In this document: piece by piece, positions 18,476-61,320 of the stretch
How positions within the stretch are numbered: position 1 is the first letter of the stretch
Layout of the letters: every line of letters begins with the position of its first letter
From: a virus
Lineage: Duplodnaviria; Caudoviricetes
IMG/VR virus record: IMGVR_UViG_3300025809_001850
Strand: one strand, 5' to 3'
Length of the DNA stretch: 64,000 nt
Translations under genes and position numbers: made by a program
The notes under the pieces: generated by a model
Seen by the model: the letters and a program-made list of their open reading frames with translations, nothing else
Database searches by the model: none
What the model was told of the DNA's origin: nothing

Positions 18476-19681
18476 GTGGAGAGAAAAATGAGAGATGATG
18501 AATTAAAATTACCTGAGTTTAAGGTAAACGAAACGATGAGTACCCTCAGTCAACGAATTGATTGGGGATTGCGACAATTGAATGTACCAAAAACATGGAG
18601 CATTACACGTGGTGAGGGAATTACTGTTATGGTAATTGACACAGGACATCCTGTTCATCCTGACATCGGTGATAATGCAATAGAAGGAAAAAACTGCATT
18701 CCCAATGAACCAATTGAAGATGAAAACGGACATCAATCTCATTGTACAGGTATCATTTGTGCAAAAGACAATGAAACTGGAATGGTGGGTGTTGCTCCTG
18801 GATCAAAATGTATTTCAGTAAAAGCATTAAGTAAAAGTGGAAGTGGAAGTTATCGTGGATTGGCAGAAGCATTGGATTATGCAATTGAAATGAAACCAGA
18901 CTTGATAAGCATGAGTTTAGGAGGTTCTTCACCTTCAGCTGCTATGCAATCACGCATACAAAAATTGTACGATATGAATATTCCTGTTATTTGTGCAGCT
19001 GGAAACTCAGGTGATGGTGGAGTTAATTATCCAGCAGCCTTTGATGAAACAATAGCAGTTGCAGCTTACGACAAATACGGAAATGTAGCAAGATTTTCTT
19101 CTAAAGGAGAAAAAGTAGAATGGGCTGCTCCTGGTGTAAACATTTATAGTACATATCTTAACAATGGATATGCTAGTTTAAGTGGAACTTCAATGGCGTG
19201 TCCGTTTATTGCGGGTGTTGTGGCGTTGATGCTTGCAAAGCACAAAAAGCAAGAAGAATCAACTGGTATGAACGATTGTAAAACAGTTGAACAAATTCGT
19301 GAGCATCTTCTTAAATACACCAAAGACAAAGGTGAAGTCGGCCGTGACAATTCATGGGGATACGGAGTTATTGATGTAGAGAAACTTATCGGTGGTGGTG
19401 ATATTGAACAACCAGTTCCAACACCTACTCCAACACCTACTCCAATAGAAAAACCAACACCTCAACCACCTGAAGAGAAACCTGTGGAAAAAGAACCGGT
19501 GAAAGAAGAACCAAAAAAGAAAAACAAAAACACTTTATTTATTGTTATTGGAGTTGTGGTAATTGCAACAATTATTGGAATTGCCGTGGTAATGAACAAC
19601 AAAGTTGATATACCAACACCACCTTATTATGATGAAAATGGTGAAATCAATTGGGACAAGAAATTTGAACTTGATCGATAA
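18476..19681 (+). CDS. Subtilisin-like S8 serine protease with Pro-rich linker and C-terminal TM anchor
   Basis: Triad motifs IDTG, NGHQSH and GTSMACP; AAGNSG; PTPT linker; hydrophobic LFIVIGVVVIATIIGIAVVM. Confidence 0.92.
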   Translation: MERKMRDDELKLPEFKVNETMSTLSQRIDWGLRQLNVPKTWSITRGEGITVMVIDTGHPVHPDIGDNAIEGKNCIPNEPIEDENGHQSHCTGIICAKDNETGMVGVAPGSKCISVKALSKSGSGSYRGLAEALDYAIEMKPDLISMSLGGSSPSAAMQSRIQKLYDMNIPVICAAGNSGDGGVNYPAAFDETIAVAAYDKYGNVARFSSKGEKVEWAAPGVNIYSTYLNNGYASLSGTSMACPFIAGVVALMLAKHKKQEESTGMNDCKTVEQIREHLLKYTKDKGEVGRDNSWGYGVIDVEKLIGGGDIEQPVPTPTPTPTPIEKPTPQPPEEKPVEKEPVKEEPKKKNKNTLFIVIGVVVIATIIGIAVVMNNKVDIPTPPYYDENGEINWDKKFELDR

Positions 19682-24288: not shown

Positions 24289-24322
24289 ATTGGTTTCGCT
24301 ACCAACCTATTGGTCACATGGG

Positions 24323-24355
24323 ATGGACAGGAATTAAGTTTCCTGTCCATTCTTC
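24323..24355 (+). terminator. Terminator-like hairpin after galE
   Basis: ATGGACAGGAA-TTAAGT-TTCCTGTCCAT followed by a pyrimidine-rich tract. Confidence 0.65.
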
Positions 24356-24377: not shown

Positions 24378-24406
24378 TTGACTTTTTATAATAAGTTTAG
24401 TAGGAT
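24378..24406 (+). promoter_or_regulatory. Early promoter cassette copy
   Basis: TTGACT-TTTTATAATAAGTTTAG-TAGGAT. Confidence 0.8.
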
Positions 24407-24583: not shown

Positions 24584-24828
24584 TTATGAAACATAAAATC
24601 GAGTTAACAACCGAAGAAATGCTTTGCATTGCTCAGTCAACTGAACGAAATCTACAAAATGCTATTGACAACAATATACCATGTAGGATATTATTTTATA
24701 CAAATATGCGAAATAAAATACAATTAGCACTTTCAGGACCTGTAGCTCAGTGGTTAGAGCAGGACACTCATAATGTCTTGGCCGCAGGTTCAAATCCTGC
24801 CAGGTCCACCATTGTACTTTCCAACTAA
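24580..24828 (+). CDS. Hypothetical ORF whose 3' half overlaps the tRNA
   Basis: Open frame from 24580/24586 runs through tRNA 24736-24811. Confidence 0.35.
   Translation: MIMKHKIELTTEEMLCIAQSTERNLQNAIDNNIPCRILFYTNMRNKIQLALSGPVAQWLEQDTHNVLAAGSNPARSTIVLSN
24736..24811 (+). tRNA. tRNA-Ile2 (CAU anticodon, lysidine type)
   Basis: 76-nt cloverleaf GGACCTG..CTCATAA..CAGGTCCACCA with encoded CCA; paired 1-72 and no GGG/CCC anticodon stem (not initiator); C4,C5 and D-arm resemble E. coli tRNA-Ile2. Confidence 0.9.
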
Positions 24829-28108: not shown

Positions 28109-28145
28109 TAAGAACCAAATTAAAAATTCAAACAAAAGAGAGAAA

Positions 28146-51649: not shown

Positions 51650-51681
51650 AAAGTGGTCATTGAAAGATGACCACTTTTTTT
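51650..51681 (+). terminator. Intrinsic terminator
   Basis: AAAGTGGTCAT-TGAAAG-ATGACCACTTT followed by T-run; preceded by TGTCA-TTCG-TGACA hairpin. Confidence 0.8.
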
Positions 51682-51899
51682 GTACTTGTGGTGTGTTGAT
51701 AATATGTTAATAACTTTTTGTTGCAATATTCATGAATATCATTCATAGTATATAAATCATGTATATCAATCATTCATCATTCAAAGAAGTCGAGTGGTTA
51801 TATTAACCTAGTCGGAGCAATTCGGCATCGTCCGCAAAACGAAGATATCGTGTAGACCTCCCCTTCCCCAGGGGGAGGTCATTTTTATAAAAATAATGC

Positions 51900-51946
51900 T
51901 TGACTTTTTATAATAAATTTGGTAGTATACTTGTATTGAGAGTGAG
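51900..51946 (+). promoter_or_regulatory. Full-length early promoter/leader cassette
   Basis: TTGACTTTTTATAATAAATTTGGTAGTATACTTGTATTGAGAGTGAG. Confidence 0.88.
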
Positions 51947-54792: not shown

Positions 54793-54987
54793 ATGATTGA
54801 GAGTAAAGTAGAAGTAAGAATTCAAAAGTGGTCAACTCATTGGTCGGTTAAAATATTTGATCAAGGTGAATATCCACGTGTACGAACTGCATCAAGTATT
54901 TCGCACCTGAAGACAATCAAAAAAGAAGAAAATCTAAATTCTTCTCGTTATAGGATTATTATTCAGAATCACGATTTTAGTGCTTGA
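54793..54987 (+). CDS. Hypothetical protein
   Basis: Single gene between two promoter cassettes. Confidence 0.55.
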   Translation: MIESKVEVRIQKWSTHWSVKIFDQGEYPRVRTASSISHLKTIKKEENLNSSRYRIIIQNHDFSA

Positions 54988-55051: not shown

Positions 55052-57373
55052 ATGAGTTTGTTAAAAGATTTACATAGTTCCTTTTGGATGGATGATGACG
55101 GATTAGACGATGATGATTTCCTCGTTGATAATTCCCATCAAGAACGTAAAGGTGGATTGAGTTACGGAGATTTAATCAAGTTGACTTCACGACGTCGTGC
55201 GATTGCCAACTTTGTTAATATTCTTACAGGTCAAAATATTCCTGTTGAATTTAGTTCACGTGGTGGTGAAAATTATACTGATGGTAAAAAGGTTGTGATT
55301 TCAGCAGATGCCAAAAACGAAACATTTGATGCAGATGTTGGATTGGCACTTCACGAAGCATCCCACATTTTACTAAGTGACTTTGAAGTTATTCAAAGAA
55401 TTATCGGTGATCCAACATCAATGCGTTCAGATGATCACTTTCCGATTTTGCGTGAAAGTTTTGTTGCAAAAAATCAAGCAGAAAAAAAGTTGGTTAAGTT
55501 TGTTTTGAATATTCTGAAAAACGAAGATATTAAAAAGCAACTTAATGATAATGGACAAATCAAGTTTCAAAGACAAATGGTTTTGTTTGCCAAAGATATG
55601 TGGAATTGGGTTGAAGATCGTAGAATTGATCATTATGTGTTTTCAAATGCTCCTGGATATCGTGAATATTATATGTCACTTTATGGTCAGTATTTTCGCA
55701 CCAAAGAAATCGGCAAAGCACTTCAAAGTGATGAATACCGTGACGAAAATCTTGATAGTTACACAATGCGTGTGATTAATCTTCTTAATGACGAACGTGA
55801 TTTAAATGCGTTGAGTGGTCTTCGTGATATCATCAAAGTTCTTGATTTGAATAACATTGCACGATTAAAGAATTCGTATGATGCTCTTTCAGTTGCAGTT
55901 GATATTTCCGAAATCATTTTCAATAACGTTGATTGGAATCAGCAAATGGAACAAACCAAAAACGGAGAATCTTCCGAAGGAAATTCCGAAACTAATTTCA
56001 ACAACGATGATTTTAATGATCCACCTGAATCTAAAGAAAGCAAGTCAGATTCAAATGAAAACTCTGATGAAAATCAAAAAAGTGGTGAAGGTCAATCTGA
56101 CGAAAATTCTGATGAAAATGGTGCTTCAGGTGCAAGTGAATCTTCTGATGACAATTCAGAAAGTGCTTCAAATGGAAGTAATGATTCTGATGAAGATGCT
56201 GAAGGAAATTCTGCGGAATCGTCTGATGAAGATAATAAGGAATCTGACGAAAAATCCAAAAAGAATTCATTAAGCAAGACTTTAAAGAAACGAGTTGAAA
56301 ACCAACTCAAAAAGCAAAAAGAATTCATGGAAGGTGATACCAAGAAAAAAAGTGCTTCCAAAAAAGATCAAGAAGCAATGAAGTCAGTTGAACAAAGTGG
56401 TTCAGAAATTGTTCAAGTTGGAACTGACGTTCATGGTGAACATGGTTACTATAAAGCACGAAGCATTGATTGCATCGTAGTTAAAAATCTTACCAAAGCA
56501 CTTATTGAAAGCAGAGAATTTCCAATGAAAAGTTATCAACGAGAAACATTTTCAAAAACGAGTGTTGAAAAAGGAATTGTTATGGGAACCGTTCTTGGAA
56601 AGAAACTTCAAATTCGTAGTGAAGTTCGTGAACTTAAAACGATGCGTCAACGCACCGGCCGAATTGAAAGAAGATTGCTGAGTGAACTTGGATATGGAAT
56701 GGAAAATGTGTTTGGTCACATTGAAATCAGCAAATACAAAAAGGCAATGCTTTATATCAGCATTGATGCTTCTTCAAGTATGTTTAGTGGAAGTTACACC
56801 AACGATAATAGCAAGTGGCATCGTACAATGACTGCAAGTGTTGCAATGGCAAAGGCCGCAAGCATGATTGACAATCTTGATGTTCGCATTGATTTTCGTG
56901 CAACTAAAGGTGATTTTCCTTATGTTGTAATTGCATACGATTCAACTAAAGATAACTTTATGAAGTTGAGAACTTTGTTTCCTATGCTTTCACCTTGTGG
57001 TTATACTCCCGAAGGATTGTGCTTTGAAGCATTAAGCAAAACATTTGTTCCTGCAACAAGTGAACGTGATGTTTACTTTGTGAACATTTCAGATGGTCAA
57101 CCTTATTTTCAAACAAAAGGAGCAAACGGATTTGATTATGTAGGCAACGAAGCTGCAAATCACACTAAAAGACAAGTTGATATTCTTCGTAAAAAAGGTA
57201 TCTTGGTTTCAAGTTACTATGTTGAAGATTCTGATTCATCTTGGTATCGTGAACGTTTCGTTCAAGCATTCAAAAGAATGTACGGCAAAGATGCTCAGTT
57301 TATCAATGTCAGCAATGTTCACGAAGTTGCAAAAACTATGAACAAAAAGTTTCTTGCTAAAAGTGTAAATTAG
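55052..57373 (+). CDS. VWA-domain protein with N-terminal HExxH domain and acidic low-complexity linker (CobT-like MoxR partner)
   Basis: LHEASH, VEDRRID, D/E/S/N-rich linker, MIDAS IDASSSM..TPEG..ISDGQP. Confidence 0.85.
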   Translation: MSLLKDLHSSFWMDDDGLDDDDFLVDNSHQERKGGLSYGDLIKLTSRRRAIANFVNILTGQNIPVEFSSRGGENYTDGKKVVISADAKNETFDADVGLALHEASHILLSDFEVIQRIIGDPTSMRSDDHFPILRESFVAKNQAEKKLVKFVLNILKNEDIKKQLNDNGQIKFQRQMVLFAKDMWNWVEDRRIDHYVFSNAPGYREYYMSLYGQYFRTKEIGKALQSDEYRDENLDSYTMRVINLLNDERDLNALSGLRDIIKVLDLNNIARLKNSYDALSVAVDISEIIFNNVDWNQQMEQTKNGESSEGNSETNFNNDDFNDPPESKESKSDSNENSDENQKSGEGQSDENSDENGASGASESSDDNSESASNGSNDSDEDAEGNSAESSDEDNKESDEKSKKNSLSKTLKKRVENQLKKQKEFMEGDTKKKSASKKDQEAMKSVEQSGSEIVQVGTDVHGEHGYYKARSIDCIVVKNLTKALIESREFPMKSYQRETFSKTSVEKGIVMGTVLGKKLQIRSEVRELKTMRQRTGRIERRLLSELGYGMENVFGHIEISKYKKAMLYISIDASSSMFSGSYTNDNSKWHRTMTASVAMAKAASMIDNLDVRIDFRATKGDFPYVVIAYDSTKDNFMKLRTLFPMLSPCGYTPEGLCFEALSKTFVPATSERDVYFVNISDGQPYFQTKGANGFDYVGNEAANHTKRQVDILRKKGILVSSYYVEDSDSSWYRERFVQAFKRMYGKDAQFINVSNVHEVAKTMNKKFLAKSVN

Positions 57374-57376
57374 GGG

Positions 57377-57405
57377 TTGACTTTTTATAATAATTTTGGT
57401 AAAGT
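57377..57405 (+). promoter_or_regulatory. Early promoter cassette copy
   Basis: TTGACT-TTTTATAATAATTTTGG-TAAAGT. Confidence 0.75.
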
Positions 57406-57414
57406 ATATAAACA

Positions 57415-57675
57415 ATGAGTGATACAGAAAATACAATAAAATGGCAACCTTTGCCATCATTGAAATCAGAAAAGATTGATGATCTTTTCAAAAATTTGTA
57501 TGGAGTTGATCGTAAAACTTCAATTACCAATTGTACTTGTGTTTCGTGTGGTGTTGAAAACATTACGGAAAACTCGTTTCGTGAAGATGTTTCACTTCGT
57601 GAATTTCACATCTCCGGATTGTGCCAAGTGTGTCAAGATAAAATCTTTGGATTTGAAGAAACTTTAGAAAAATAA
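57415..57675 (+). CDS. Small CxxC..CxxC zinc-finger protein
   Basis: CVSC..FR..SL.EF.ISGLCQVCQD.IF. Confidence 0.65.
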   Translation: MSDTENTIKWQPLPSLKSEKIDDLFKNLYGVDRKTSITNCTCVSCGVENITENSFREDVSLREFHISGLCQVCQDKIFGFEETLEK

Positions 57676-57678
57676 AGC

Positions 57679-57707
57679 TTGACTTTTTATAGAAAATTTA
57701 GTAATAT
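57679..57707 (+). promoter_or_regulatory. Early promoter cassette copy
   Basis: TTGACT-17-TAATAT. Confidence 0.75.
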
Positions 57708-57755
57708 TAAGATTCAAAACTGAGAGAATAACAAGAGAAAAAAAAAACAAAAATT

Positions 57756-58958
57756 ATGAGTGAGATTATAGCAAAGGTAGTTCAAAACAAAACACGTTTC
57801 AATGCAGTAGACGCAGATGGAAATAAAGTTGATGGAATTTCAGCAAGTTTGCGACGTAAAGCATTTGATGCCAACAAAGCACTTCAACGTGCAATCGGCA
57901 AAACAGGTCGTCCGTTTTGGAGATTGGTAAACATTGAGGAATTCGTTTCCATTGATACCAAGTCTGCTCCTACCACTTCACGTGATGAAGCAAGTATGGA
58001 AATTTCAGAGATTCCTGAAAAGCACAACGAAATTGTTGAGTTTCTTAAAAAGTGTTTTTCGTTGAAACCCAACAAATTGTTTATGAATGAAACCAAGTGG
58101 AAGTATTTGGTTCGTTCAGCAGTTCGTGGAAAGAACGTTATGATGACGGGCAACTCCGGTTGTGGTAAAACTTTGGCAAGTAAAACTCTTGCAGAAGTTC
58201 TTGATCGTCCTTTTTATTATTTCAATCTCGGAGCAACACAAGATCCTCGTTCTGCTTTGATTGGTAATACTCATTTCAAAAAAGAAACTGGAACCGTGTT
58301 TTCCGAAAGTTCTTTTATCAAAGCAATTAGAACTCCCAACTCTATTATTCTTCTTGATGAATTATCAAGAGCACATCCTGATGCATGGAACATTTTAATG
58401 ACTCCACTTGATCCTCTTCAACGTTATGTTCGGTTGGACGAATCTGAAGATTCTGAAGTTGTTCCTGTTGCAGATGGAGTTACTTTCGTTGCTACTGCAA
58501 ATGTAGGTAACGAGTATACTTCCACACGGGTAATGGACAGAGCATTGCTTGATCGTTTTGTAACCGTGGAAATGGATGAACTTGAATACGAAGAAGAAGT
58601 TCAACTTCTTAAATTACTTTATCCTGATGCCGATGTTAATATGCTCGGAACAATTGCAGAAATTACTACTCACACTCGTAAGGTTGTGAAAAGTGCTGAA
58701 GCAAAAATTACTGATGCTCTTTCAACTCGTAGTGCAGTTGAAATGGCAGGTCTTGCTTATGATGGTTTCAATTTACTTGAAATTGCAGAAGCATCAATTT
58801 ATCCTCACTTTTCAGATGATGGTGGTGCAGATTCGGAACGTACTTACATGAAGCAATTCGTTCAAAAGTATGTTCAAAACGAAGATACTCCCGAGGAATT
58901 ATTTTCTCTCAATCCCGATGAAAATCAAGAAGATGCAGTTCAAAGAACTCCATATTGA
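57756..58958 (+). CDS. MoxR/CbbQ-like AAA+ ATPase
   Basis: GNSGCGKT, LIGNTH, ILLDELSR, ATANVG, DRALLDRF, STR. Confidence 0.9.
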   Translation: MSEIIAKVVQNKTRFNAVDADGNKVDGISASLRRKAFDANKALQRAIGKTGRPFWRLVNIEEFVSIDTKSAPTTSRDEASMEISEIPEKHNEIVEFLKKCFSLKPNKLFMNETKWKYLVRSAVRGKNVMMTGNSGCGKTLASKTLAEVLDRPFYYFNLGATQDPRSALIGNTHFKKETGTVFSESSFIKAIRTPNSIILLDELSRAHPDAWNILMTPLDPLQRYVRLDESEDSEVVPVADGVTFVATANVGNEYTSTRVMDRALLDRFVTVEMDELEYEEEVQLLKLLYPDADVNMLGTIAEITTHTRKVVKSAEAKITDALSTRSAVEMAGLAYDGFNLLEIAEASIYPHFSDDGGADSERTYMKQFVQKYVQNEDTPEELFSLNPDENQEDAVQRTPY

Positions 58959-58965
58959 TAAGTAA

Positions 58966-59069
58966 TCGGTTCTCTCATGGTGGAACTCCTACTCTCTCGG
59001 GAGTTCCACCTTTTCTTTCTCTCACACTCGGTGGGACTTCTACTCTCTCGGAAGTCCCACCTTTTTTTT
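58966..59069 (+). ncRNA. Twin-hairpin element (terminators and candidate small RNA) with identical TACTCTCTCG loops
   Basis: GGTGGAACTCC/GGAGTTCCACC (58979-59010) and GGTGGGACTTC/GAAGTCCCACC (59030-59061) + T8; two compensatory pair swaps. Confidence 0.55.
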
Positions 59070-59110
59070 GGACTTGATTTTTAATTTAAATTACTTTATA
59101 TTATATAACA

Positions 59111-59377
59111 ATGAAAATAGAGATTGAAATAAACAACGAAACATATTGCTGGAAATCCGATTACGAAGATCACAACATATACGATATTGCAGAAAAATTC
59201 AAAGGTTTGCTTGTAAATGCAGGATTTCATCCCGACAACGTAGATGATCTTTTTGATGAATGTGTTATTGGTAGTTGGAAATTACCAACTGATAAAAATT
59301 TGTATGCAGATGAACTTGACGATGAATACGATAAACACGACAACGAAACAAACATTAACACAGAAACTTTAAAGTAA
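59111..59377 (+). CDS. Hypothetical acidic protein
   Basis: 88 aa. Confidence 0.55.
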   Translation: MKIEIEINNETYCWKSDYEDHNIYDIAEKFKGLLVNAGFHPDNVDDLFDECVIGSWKLPTDKNLYADELDDEYDKHDNETNINTETLK

Positions 59378-59931
59378 TGGGAATGTTTGATTATGTAATG
59401 TGTGAGTACGATTTGCCGTTACCAAAAGATTGCAAAGAACTTGCAGATATACAATGGAATGAATTCGCATTTCAAAGCAAGAATATGAATTGTTTGATGG
59501 ATGATTATAGAATAACCAAAAAAGGAAAACTTTTGGTTCGTGAAAGTCGTCCTGATTTTTTTGATAAACCTCCGAAAGATTTACCTGAAGTTGAAAGTAA
59601 TTATCACGGTGAGTTGAATTTTTATGCATATGAACAACGAAACAAATATGATTATAGTGTAACTTTCAATGCAAAATTTTCGTATGGCAAACTTGATGCA
59701 ATTGAATTAACAGAATTTGAAAAGCATTCCAACGAAAACAGAAAATCATATCAAGCAGAATTTAAAAAACAAGCAGAACTTCATCAAACCAGACGCACGA
59801 AATTGTGGTACAAACTGTATCGTGTATTTTATGTAAAACCAATTAAGTGTTTATTTGGAACTATGTATAAAGTATTATCACACATAAAATCAAAATGGTT
59901 TATGTATGAATCAAAATTATTACCTTGGTAA
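59377..59931 (+). CDS. Conserved phage hypothetical protein (MGMFD type)
   Basis: MGMFDYV.C..LP, FQSK..C..Y.I..G.L, HG..FY, F..GKL. Confidence 0.65.
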   Translation: MGMFDYVMCEYDLPLPKDCKELADIQWNEFAFQSKNMNCLMDDYRITKKGKLLVRESRPDFFDKPPKDLPEVESNYHGELNFYAYEQRNKYDYSVTFNAKFSYGKLDAIELTEFEKHSNENRKSYQAEFKKQAELHQTRRTKLWYKLYRVFYVKPIKCLFGTMYKVLSHIKSKWFMYESKLLPW

Positions 59932-59934
59932 ATT

Positions 59935-60567
59935 ATGAAAACTGCAAACGCAACAAATGTAACACAATACAAACAACTTCCGAAATCAGAACGAGAAGCT
60001 TTCGGATTTTGGTATCGTTTGCCAAAATTGTATGAATGGGGTGGTGAACGATTTGAAGATTATTGGAAGAAACATTATCCTATTCAATTCAGAATTCGTG
60101 AGGGTATTGAAAATTTGTTGATTTCAATTTCTGTATACAAAGACAAATTGATAGAAAATACTTGGACACGCATTTTTCCAAAAAATGCATGGGCAAGAAA
60201 AATAATTCCACATACATATTCAGATAAACCAGAACTAATTCAAGATTTTCTATTTGCGAGTATAATTGATTTTGTTGAAAATGAACCAACAGAATACACA
60301 GATTGGGAATCTAGTAAAGAACACAAACAAACTTGGAAAACTATAAACAAGTTATACAAATTTGCCAAGCAGACTTTACCTGCAAGACGAAATAGATTAA
60401 ACGAAATGTTGTCTGACTTGTATGATGAAAAAAGTTTAATGGAGTTTGTTGACAATTCTGATGATCCAAGATACGAAGAAATGTCTGCTCTTGAAAAACA
60501 AACAGATAAAGAAATTCAACAAAATCTTCTTGAAATTGTAAAAATCAGACAATATCTTTGGACATAG
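59935..60567 (+). CDS. Hypothetical protein
   Basis: 210 aa; ends LxEIVKIRxYLWT, as in many phage proteins. Confidence 0.6.
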   Translation: MKTANATNVTQYKQLPKSEREAFGFWYRLPKLYEWGGERFEDYWKKHYPIQFRIREGIENLLISISVYKDKLIENTWTRIFPKNAWARKIIPHTYSDKPELIQDFLFASIIDFVENEPTEYTDWESSKEHKQTWKTINKLYKFAKQTLPARRNRLNEMLSDLYDEKSLMEFVDNSDDPRYEEMSALEKQTDKEIQQNLLEIVKIRQYLWT

Positions 60568-60579
60568 TAATCTTTTTTC

Positions 60580-60626
60580 TTGACTTTTTATAATAATTCT
60601 GATAGGATTACTGTATTGAGAGTGAG
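60580..60626 (+). promoter_or_regulatory. Early promoter/leader cassette
   Basis: TTGACT-17-TAGGAT-TACTGTATTGAGAGTGAG. Confidence 0.85.
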
Positions 60627-60654
60627 GGAAGAGTCCCTTTAAAAAAGAGAGATT

Positions 60655-61320
60655 ATGGCAAAGATATACAAAGACGGAAAGTTCTTCAAATATTACAAAG
60701 AAACATGGTTCAATCCAAAGGGAATGACCAAAGACGGATACTTCATTCATGTACCTGATGATGACATTTGTAGTGAGTACCACACAGTCAAGGAGCATGG
60801 ACGTTTAAAGGCATTTCATGCATCATCCGAGGTTACTACTCATCCTGTTGCTATAGAACCTTCTGGGTTGTTTAAAACCAAGAATTTTACAGGTCGTTGG
60901 TACTTTATTGATACCAAGGTTACTGATGAAGAAATTCAAAACAAAGTTGATTGGTTTGAAAACAACCAAAAACTAATTGCTGAAGCAGATGAACGCAAAG
61001 CAGACAACATTGCCAAGTGGAAAGCAAAAAGTGCATTTCAAGGTGAAATTGGTGATACTCTTGAATTGGAACTTGGTATTATGTTTCAGAATCAGTTTCC
61101 TACAAGTTGGGGAACAGGACATCTTACCACTTTAAAAGATGATGATGCGAATGTTTATGTTATTTGGAGAGAATTTTGGAACAACGAAAATGACGAACCT
61201 ATGCCAACGGGAACCAAGATCAAAGGAACATTCAAAGTTAAAGATCACAACGAACGCAATGAACAAAAGCAAACCGTTCTTCAAACTAAGATTGAAAATA
61301 CTGAATTTATTTTCAAATAA
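60655..61320 (+). CDS. Phage protein with C-terminal OB-fold-like domain
   Basis: GEIG....L....F...WG...L.DD..NV..W..G..VK.H......QT.L. Confidence 0.55.
   Translation: MAKIYKDGKFFKYYKETWFNPKGMTKDGYFIHVPDDDICSEYHTVKEHGRLKAFHASSEVTTHPVAIEPSGLFKTKNFTGRWYFIDTKVTDEEIQNKVDWFENNQKLIAEADERKADNIAKWKAKSAFQGEIGDTLELELGIMFQNQFPTSWGTGHLTTLKDDDANVYVIWREFWNNENDEPMPTGTKIKGTFKVKDHNERNEQKQTVLQTKIENTEFIFK

Follow-up and report, generated by a model that had tools for sequence, protein, structure and literature searches.

A duplicated terminator within a conserved CU-motif module that closes an early transcription unit of a phage, with possible pairing to early leaders

We analysed a 64-kb window of the uncultured marine phage genome IMGVR_UViG_3300025809_001850 (Duplodnaviria; Caudoviricetes), that is, the whole stretch of DNA to which all coordinates and the + strand refer, and within it a pair of hairpins just downstream of a gene for a MoxR/CobS-like AAA+ ATPase (hereafter the ATPase), the last gene of an early transcription unit. 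These twin hairpins are, with high confidence, tandem Rho-independent terminators that close the early ATPase unit. For the locus as a whole, the explanation that we find best, and hold with moderate confidence, is that a duplicated terminator is lodged inside a conserved 3'-end module of CU-rich motifs, which may pair with the GAGAG leaders of early genes. An earlier reading of the letters and open reading frames alone (the first-pass annotation) had singled out the same hairpins for the complementarity of their CU-rich loops to these leaders. From the comparison of relatives given below, the conserved pairing candidates would be the single-stranded UUCUCUCA flanks rather than the loops.

Twin hairpins at the end of the ATPase unit

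The first-pass annotation had described two GC-rich stems with identical loops and CU-rich flanks, and this description is accurate for both stems, the loops and the flanks. Read from 5' to 3', the layout is GGTTCTCTCA-TG-(hairpin 1: GGTGGAACTCC TACTCTCTCG GGAGTTCCACC)-TTTTCTTTCTCTCACACTC-(hairpin 2: GGTGGGACTTC TACTCTCTCG GAAGTCCCACC)-TTTTTTTT. The arms are GGTGGAACTCC(T) / (G)GGAGTTCCACC in hairpin 1 and GGTGGGACTTC(T) / (G)GAAGTCCCACC in hairpin 2, with the same 10-nt segment TACTCTCTCG separating the 11-bp arms in both, and the CU-rich flanks are GGTTCTCTCA at 58968-58977 and TTTCTCTCACACTC at 59016-59029. Folding with RNAfold adds a closing U.G pair, which gives 12-bp stems with seven G-C pairs each, an 8-nt loop ACUCUCUC and about -22 kcal/mol per hairpin, and the 136-nt hairpin region folds with a z-score of -6.5 against shuffles. 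Two stem base pairs differ between the hairpins (A-U/G-C and C-G/U-A), and both differences are compensatory.

A T-run, missed in the first pass, follows directly 3' of each hairpin (TTTTCTTTC after the first, T8 after the second); it is present on the + strand only, and an antisense reading finds no T-run after the hairpins on the minus strand. The first hairpin begins 20 nt past the ATPase stop codon and is co-oriented with the gene, and the pair are the top two terminator-like sites of a consensus scan within 50-64 kb. Early promoters lie 5' of the hairpins at 54984, 57377 and 57679, with the next early cassette at 60580, 1.5 kb away. Three hallmarks of intrinsic terminators are found together: a GC-rich stem-loop with an adjoining U-tract, a position at the end of a transcription unit, and a stem kept by compensatory change. 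Tandem terminators at this place would end the early ATPase unit and keep early read-through out of the genes that come next, which are probably late.

DNA of the locus was detected in at least 14 marine DNA runs, and part of it in six metatranscriptome runs. Four RNA runs were examined, as assembled contigs only, in which uncovered stretches carry no weight as evidence. In two of these, X17 and X18, the ATPase contigs end at 59043 and 59024, and new contigs begin from 59143/59144 with no loose ends (hairpins can break coverage), while the summed word depth falls over the gap from 19 to 5 and from 7 to 5. As a weak hint only, this gap agrees with termination and a separate downstream transcript.

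The comparative evidence comes from 15 lineages, namely the window and metagenomic orthologous loci obtained from a metagenome scan and a large protein collection, with ATPase identities of 72-98% (97-98% for L082, L083 and L085; 94% for L163; 92% for L084 and L164; 90% for L173; 88% for L171; 86% for L165; 83% for L167; 81% for L166; 80% for L168; 76% for L169; 72% for L170). Two hairpins are present only in the window, L082, L083 and L085, and a single one in the 11 others (L084, L163-L171 and L173). The commonest single-hairpin stem is GGTGGGACTCC/GGAGTCCCACC, from which each window copy is one compensatory pair away; the stem of hairpin 1 type occurs alone in L164, and the stem or linker of hairpin 2 type alone in L170 and L173. 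This distribution indicates that the twin arose by a recent tandem duplication of about 51 bp in the window sub-lineage, or by unequal crossing-over between allelic variants there. The duplicated unit would comprise the UUCUCUCA flank, the hairpin and the start of the U-tract.

Stem and loop have had different histories in these relatives. The stem is paired in 100% of 150 cells across 13 distinct sequences, with three pairs changed on both sides, and its covariation score was reached by 0/500 shuffles. The window clade has TACTCTCTCG as its loop; the other versions are TTCTCTCTCG in L084, L163 and L170, TTTTCTCTCG in L164, TTTCTCTCG in L173, TTCTCTCTCA in L165 and L171, TTTTTCTCTC in L167, TTCTC in L168 and GTTT in L166 and L169, a pattern that looks like T/CT slippage and leaves the loop CU-rich in most lineages. 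Because relatives carry a 10-nt CU-rich loop, UUCUC or a GUUU tetraloop with the stem kept, the loop is dispensable, and the identity of the two window loops comes from the recent duplication, not from selection on the loop.

The claims made in the first pass fare accordingly. The hairpins are borne out as real + strand RNA structures, and a covariance search in relatives, which had been proposed, does recover stem covariation and an orthologous site. The argument that identical 10-nt loops speak for a function beyond termination falls away with 11/15 lineages having one hairpin, and the relatives show no loop conservation. As a pairing seed the loop fails on the very result that had been named as decisive, since its length and sequence vary, down to GUUU in two lineages, over a stem that is kept.

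The locus borders a hyperplastic region, in which the downstream genes differ among relatives and L170 is a mosaic. At L166:4189-4330 and L169:2681-2810, the GUUU hairpin is followed some 15-25 nt on by an early promoter cassette and then by the orthologue of gene 60655. The three genes at 59111-60567 are missing in both lineages.

The CU-motif module around the hairpins

The hairpins belong to a longer arrangement with the order CU motif 1, helix P1, CU motif 2, terminator hairpin P2 and U-tail, which takes up 170 nt in the window, against 85-125 nt in lineages with one hairpin (Table 1). Motif 1 contains a fifth CU copy, TTTTCTCTCAAT at 58902-58913, which lies inside the ATPase gene and was missed in the first pass. 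Its core UUUCUCUCAA is placed 32-70 nt 5' of UCGGUUCUCUCA; in most lineages it belongs to the coding sequence, and in three it lies outside it. Motif 1 is invariant in the 13 aligned lineages and intact too in L083 and L173, and its codons TTT TCT CTC AAT show no synonymous change, unlike neighbouring codons; the CTC among them is a rare Leu codon that accounts for 4.7% of Leu codons in the window.

The three lineages with a non-coding motif 1 (L165, L167 and L171) provide a natural experiment. In these the ATPase ends earlier, and the last ~25-50 nt of its gene are present twice (L165:4130-4240, L167:4120-4230, L171:3450-3555). The DNA for the homologous peptide (e.g. ELFTINPDEK) is TTTACTATCAAC, from which the CU run is absent, the coding copy reading TTTACTATC or similar. 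Past the stop codon stands a second, non-coding copy TTTTCTCTCAAA..CCGATGAA, which is truncated and retains TTTTCTCTCAA and the P1 arm. Motif 1 has therefore been kept where it is non-coding and lost where only the protein matters.

Helix P1 has the consensus CCGAY/RUCGG and encloses an insert of 13-54 nt whose sequence differs among lineages. It appears in the minimum free energy (MFE) and centroid structures of 11/12 lineages folded with RNAfold, as well as in the RNAalifold consensus. The five pairs are formed in 13/13 sequences, one of them as U-A in eight, C-G in three and U.G in two, and the covariation score of P1 was reached by 21/500 shuffles. Because every G.U pair of the two helices, P1 and P2, would turn into an A.C mismatch on the opposite strand, the structure belongs to + strand RNA. 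The 12-mer UCGGUUCUCUCA stands 2-4 nt 5' of the hairpin and is identical in 14/15 lineages; in L082 it carries a C to U change in the P1-arm part, with a G.U pair retained, and an inserted G, and GGUUCUCUCA is intact. Both invariant motifs are predicted to be single-stranded, neither the MFE nor the centroid fold giving them a partner.

The strongest rival holds that all of this is a plain tandem terminator, its CU runs being a slippage-prone CT microsatellite with neighbours that have no function, and its conservation coming from the closeness of the lineages and from homogenisation of the junction by recombination. The recent twin fits such a view, as do a loop whose length changes in T/CT units and which L166 and L169 have lost, a hyperplastic downstream region with a mosaic L170, and the three nearest relatives, which are 96-100% identical in adjacent coding DNA and whose identity is thus little informative. 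It has more difficulty with GGUUCUCUCA and UUUCUCUCAA, which are identical in 15/15 lineages despite changes in the adjoining bases, linker, stem, loop and P1 insert, and with the retention of motif 1 outside the coding sequence, its loss from the coding paralogue and its use of a rare codon. The CU runs are also denser than expected. The + strand of the window has CTCTC nine times, seven of them within 58906-59045, and is otherwise depleted of it as coding strand; among 300 first-order Markov simulations, four non-overlapping copies in 100 nt arose in none and three copies in 3/300, so that three or more per 100 nt are reached in about 1%. A plain terminator is for these reasons fairly improbable. 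The comparative data support nucleotide-level constraint on the two UUCUCUCA motifs and P1, and the module is probably under selection for something beyond termination.

Copies of the module elsewhere were sought in several ways. With the covariance model R1, the two hairpins are the sole matches in the window, and 13 related loci (~150 kb) yield the orthologous site alone; a scan of 162 loci (0.96 Mb) gave no + strand CTCTC cluster beyond the orthologous site. Rfam 15 contains no matching family, the best hit being CcsR1 at 16 bits against a gathering threshold of 65.3 (E = 1). In the GenBank phage collection, megablast of 57000-61000 and tblastn of a structural gene gave no match, and the ATPase has only distant phage relatives (<=52%), with no terminator or CU cluster after the ATPase homologue of LR756508.1. 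Within IMG/VR, 80 ATPase loci at <=57% are without a comparable hairpin, the hairpin pattern gave 0 hits, the promoter pattern met one unrelated provirus without the ATPase, and the two-motif pattern gave four chance matches without a terminator. P0054 (61%) is a different phage from which the element is absent.

Complementarity to early leaders

The sequence to which the CU motifs are complementary is a mark of early genes in this window. GAGAG occurs 36 times on the + strand, against the nine of CTCTC, which is a strong strand asymmetry, and is enriched about 7-fold in the 25 nt before start codons, where GGAGA and GAGAA are enriched too. Cassette transcripts start AUUGAGAGUGAG, several ribosome-binding sites read AGAGAGAAA(A), and some early genes start AUGAGAGAU. 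Pairing of GAGAG with a generic anti-Shine-Dalgarno tail is weak, at about -6 kcal/mol, the tail being generic and possibly not that of the host. The first pass had reported GAGAGAAA just 5' of four gene starts, and it is confirmed there, at 28138, 32353, 55034 and 61411, with a further copy at 18479. The reported pairing of the loop with GAGAGUG is likewise predicted, over 7 bp with one G.U and at -7.6 kcal/mol net. The CU motifs are, as had been claimed, non-random and complementary to the GAGAG marks of early leaders.

Pairing energies were computed as duplex energy plus the opening energies of both partners, in a windowed search with accessibility terms. Against 17 early leaders, the 3' module reaches <=-10 kcal/mol in 7/17, with a range of -10 to -13.8. 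The best predicted pairing is that of motif 1 (UAUUUUCUCUC) on GAGAGAAAAUG/A at 28138 (-13.0) and 32353 (-13.8), where it covers or abuts the start codon. The leader of the ATPase itself gives about -10 to -11.6 kcal/mol, and the loops alone are weakest, at -7.6. It is at early genes other than the ATPase, 28146 and 32366 among them, that the predicted pairing covers a ribosome-binding site, and early GAGAGAAAA sites give -11 to -14 kcal/mol in silico. With an RNA lacking motif 1, the leaders averaged -8.3, compared with -3.5 for random + strand 80-mers and -6.0 +/- 1.2 for shuffles of the unpaired parts, 0/40 of which reached the leader value. Composition explains part of the leader pairing effect, not all of it.

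Within the ATPase mRNA itself, an exact complement of UUCUCUCA is present in the 5' leader. The 8-mer UGAGAGAA has its single occurrence in the window there, and the island AAACUGAGAGAAUAA that contains it is kept in 13/15 lineages with both flanks diverged. Conservation of both UUCUCUCA (2-5 copies) and UGAGAGAA matches what is expected of 3'-motif/5'-untranslated region (UTR) complementarity of the icaR type. Separately, genes 18488, 24419 and 34927 begin ATGAGAGAT (Met-Arg-Asp), to which UCUCUCAU, a part of CU motif 2, is exactly complementary; for the two that were scored, 24419 and 34927, the predicted pairing is -7.4 to -10 kcal/mol.

RNA-RNA pairing with GAGAG leaders is a possible function of the module beyond termination, which we put forward tentatively. 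The invariant motifs would pair with GAGAG(AA) of early 5' leaders, and the first candidate for such a pair is a 5'-3' UTR contact in the ATPase mRNA, in which the UGAGAGAA island would meet the 3' motifs of its own transcript and stability or translation might be affected. In trans, a terminated or processed 3' fragment may also pair with further early mRNAs, at those ribosome-binding sites that read GAGAGAAAA. A more ambitious form of the proposal, which we regard as unlikely, is a multivalent 'anti-leader' RNA whose UUCUCUCA motifs would pair with early 5' ends and ribosome-binding sites and shut off translation as it accumulates; such motifs number two ancestrally, three with a CU-rich terminator loop and five post duplication, and the recent duplication would then be an increase in dose.

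Several observations weigh against pairing as the function of the module. The complementarity tests are post hoc, as the finding was picked for its complementarity. No covariation between leader and CU motif is seen among lineages, both being invariant, and in L169 and L170 the leader reads AGAGAGAA (U to A) with the CU motif unchanged. The UGAGAGAA island lies ~25-28 nt 5' of the ATPase ATG (57756), outside Shine-Dalgarno distance. P1 is short, at 5 bp, and in the window lineage motif 1 and most of P1 are translated, so that ribosomes would open both on a full-length mRNA. Recombination at the module boundary could have homogenised the junction and inflated the apparent conservation. The RNA evidence consists of contigs, which show neither true ends, strand nor level.

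Repeated single-stranded motifs beside hairpins are the usual layout of protein-binding RNA modules, and the UUCUCUCA motifs, which are repeated and single-stranded beside hairpins, might accordingly be sites for a protein that tunes termination, 3'-end stability or processing. This could be an RNA-binding protein of the phage, or a host factor with a preference for pyrimidine or YC-rich single strands, such as Rho, the KH domains of NusA, S1 or an Hfq-like chaperone that sits on the 3' hairpin and U-tail. Motifs that are invariant and do not covary with the leaders fit a protein reader as well as they fit pairing, which is a further point against the latter. We nevertheless judge a protein reader unlikely, as it would make a coincidence of the exact complement being both an early-leader hallmark and conserved in the leader of the same mRNA; no candidate protein is named by the data, and no Rfam family matches.

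The proposal of the first pass was a stable ~100-nt small RNA (sRNA) derived from the 3' UTR, with the twin loops as seeds for global repression of early genes with GAGAG leaders. With its strong hairpins and U-tail, the 3' end of the early mRNA does have the form of a 3'-derived sRNA, and motifs of leaders and ribosome-binding sites find complements in both its loops and its flanks. As stated, the proposal is quite improbable: L168 has a 5-nt UUCUC as its loop and L166 and L169 have GUUU, only the nearest lineages carry the twin, and of all predicted pairings that of the loop is the weakest. The RNA contigs gave no hint of a discrete, abundant short RNA, no conserved promoter inside the unit was noted, and the 3' region shares contigs with the ATPase coding sequence in two RNA runs (which is not conclusive). 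A CsrB-type sponge, also suggested by analogy, is not supported, the + strand loops ACUCUCUC being without GGA.

An element acting as DNA, with GAGAG/CTCTC boxes that a DNA-binding protein of the phage would occupy both here at the terminator and in early promoter regions (+3 to +15), or with a conserved crossover site for modular shuffling of the kind known from promoter-terminator cassettes of T4-like phages, would suit the adjoining region of differing gene content and the PeSL-like succession of hairpin and early promoter cassette in L166 and L169 (PMC4122927; see below for PeSLs). It is very improbable in view of the compensatory and G.U-tolerant changes in both helices, which point to + strand RNA, and of the single location found with the covariance model, unlike repeated PeSLs. 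A minus-strand RNA presenting GAGAG as a sponge, the other option of the first pass, is extremely improbable: the hairpins fold on the minus strand too, but U.G pairs of P1 and P2 become A.C mismatches, and that strand has no T-run, no nearby promoter-like site with >=9/12 matches and no gene.

Three further candidates were tried and rejected. An inverted early promoter cassette as the origin of the element does not fit, since the -10 region, when reverse-complemented, does not give the bases beside CTCTCAAT; the flank as an antiterminator would have ~5 weak pairs with the 3' arm to set against 12 in the stem; and TGCTTGACT as a MotA box has the wrong spacing to the -10.

Known systems and neighbouring features

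A duplicated terminator in a conserved CU-motif module, our preferred reading, can be placed beside several known systems. With tandem Rho-independent terminators the locus shares serial GC-rich hairpins and U-tracts just past a stop codon and stems kept compensatorily. It differs in its 8-nt CU-rich loops, long for strong terminators, in the very recent local duplication, and in that the window pair is embedded in a conserved module of two helices, the single-stranded motifs of which are invariant.

The hairpin loops of Staphylococcus aureus RNAIII and the C-rich regions of RsaE/RoxS belong to RNAs in which pyrimidine motifs seed on ribosome-binding sites. The window likewise has a repeated pyrimidine motif, in loops and between hairpins, a terminator end, and complementarity to the ribosome-binding sites of a set of genes, and a conserved single-stranded seed with predicted targets above controls, as in such sRNAs, is found (post hoc). 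In contrast to these RNAs, the window motif matches the unusual GAGAG(AAA) rather than GGAG/GGGA.

In the icaR mRNA of S. aureus, a UCCCCUG motif of the 3' UTR pairs with the Shine-Dalgarno region of the 5' UTR (PMC3868564), and a 5'/3'-UTR contact is described for hbs of B. subtilis (PMC5737220). The likeness to icaR lies in a 3' pyrimidine motif for which the 5' leader of the same mRNA holds an exact 8-nt complement, itself a conserved purine motif. The motif here is UUCUCUCA and not UCCCC, is present in 2-5 copies, and has its partner off the ribosome-binding site, in a phage setting.

The promoter-early stem-loops (PeSLs) of T4-like phages are composite terminator/promoter cassettes (PMC2839356, PMC4122927). 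Here, too, a stem-loop terminator stands at the edge of a hyperplastic region, a promoter cassette adjoins it in L166 and L169, and the window has 17 promoter cassettes. The stem-loop of the window with its CU flanks is, however, single-copy across the window and the related loci searched, and has no early promoter adjoining it, and it falls outside the PeSL type. Early shut-off in T4 employs the RegA repressor together with the RegB nuclease, whose cleavage target is GGAG within Shine-Dalgarno sites of early genes (PMC1702504, PMC3014915). Early mRNAs bear, in the leader or ribosome-binding site, a class-specific purine motif readable by a phage-made factor in both cases; the readers are proteins in T4, and the candidate here is an RNA motif.

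Table 1. Features of the module, the ATPase unit and the start of the following gene (window coordinates).
Feature	Position	Strand	Remarks
Early sigma-70-type promoter of the ATPase unit	57679-57707	+	-35 TTGACT 57679-57684, 17-bp spacer, -10 TAATAT 57702-57707; consensus scan, kept in relatives
Leader island UGAGAGAA within AAACUGAGAGAAUAA	57721-57728	+	~+8 to +15 of the ATPase mRNA; exact complement of UUCUCUCA
MoxR/CobS-like AAA+ ATPase gene, last of the early unit	57756-58958 (stop 58956-58958)	+	400 aa; Pfam AAA_5 1.8e-17; PHROG 249 2.7e-25
CU motif 1 UUUUCUCUCAAU, core UUUCUCUCAA	58902-58913	+	Encodes Phe-Ser-Leu-Asn near the ATPase C-terminus
Helix P1	58915-58969	+	CCGAU 58915-58919 pairs with AUCGG 58965-58969; encloses variable insert, with the stop codon here
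Invariant 12-mer UCGGUUCUCUCA	58966-58977	+	Bases 1-4 (UCGG) complete the 3' arm of P1
CU motif 2 UUCUCUCA	58970-58977	+	Predicted single-stranded, between P1 and terminator
Terminator hairpin 1	58979-59010; loop ACUCUCUC 58991-58998	+	12-bp stem; fold and stem covariation in relatives
Interrupted U-tract UUUUCUUUC of hairpin 1	59011-59019	+
Junction copy of UUCUCUCA	59017-59024	+	Created by the tandem duplication; linker CACACUC with small indels among twin lineages
Terminator hairpin 2	59030-59061; loop ACUCUCUC 59042-59049	+	12-bp stem
U8 tract of hairpin 2	59062-59069	+
AT-rich motif TTTATATTATATAA	59095-59113	+	Near ATG 59111 of the next gene (88 aa)

From its match to the consensus we infer that 57679-57707 would act as a promoter. 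The early promoter cassette to which it belongs is present in 17 copies on the + strand, at 24378, 25730, 28062, 30611, 31764, 32278, 34889, 39089, 40182, 51900, 54758, 54984, 57377, 57679, 60580, 61334 and 62815, and consists of TTGACT, a conserved 17-bp spacer TTTTATAATAAnTTTGG and a TAGTAT-like hexamer, with the leader AUUGAGAGUGAG following many copies. At cassettes 24378 and 39089, an ATG stands exactly at the expected transcript start, which suggests leaderless early mRNAs. On the downstream side, TTTATATTATATAA seems by inference to resemble a late-type motif 5' of 33708, 8926 and 20392, and TATTTAT, likely a late promoter, is also enriched before start codons.

A 184-aa gene at 59377-59934 is absent from L082 and L083, L163 is without a gene at that position, and an RNA contig of run X18 joins 59377 to 59944 with nine other letters between. 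The gene is a presence/absence polymorphism 3' of the terminator. Strong terminator-like hairpins are also found at 51650-51677 and 51855-51880; the latter reads GACCUCCCCUU CCCC AGGGGGAGGUC, adjoins the early promoter at 51900 and has an anti-Shine-Dalgarno-like CCUCC in its 5' arm. A tRNA-Met (CAU) gene at 24736-24811 has upstream of it a 14-bp terminator-like hairpin (24320-24353) and the early promoter at 24378.

Taken alone, the twin hairpins are ordinary; the wider module has no counterpart in Rfam. If the pairing is not real, the locus still documents a terminator duplication followed by compensatory upkeep of pairing, and an RNA motif that is maintained at synonymous sites and survives in the 3' UTR after its coding copy was lost. 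The module would be an unusual phage case of an invariant motif, embedded at a terminator, that is exactly complementary to the signature of a whole temporal class of mRNAs. Pairing, if real, would explain why GAGAG is repeated in early leaders despite its poor anti-Shine-Dalgarno fit, and an anti-leader RNA, if true, would do by means of RNA what the proteins RegA and RegB do in the early shut-off of T4. Real pairing would also give an abundant uncultured marine megaphage a simple, RNA-only feedback on early expression.

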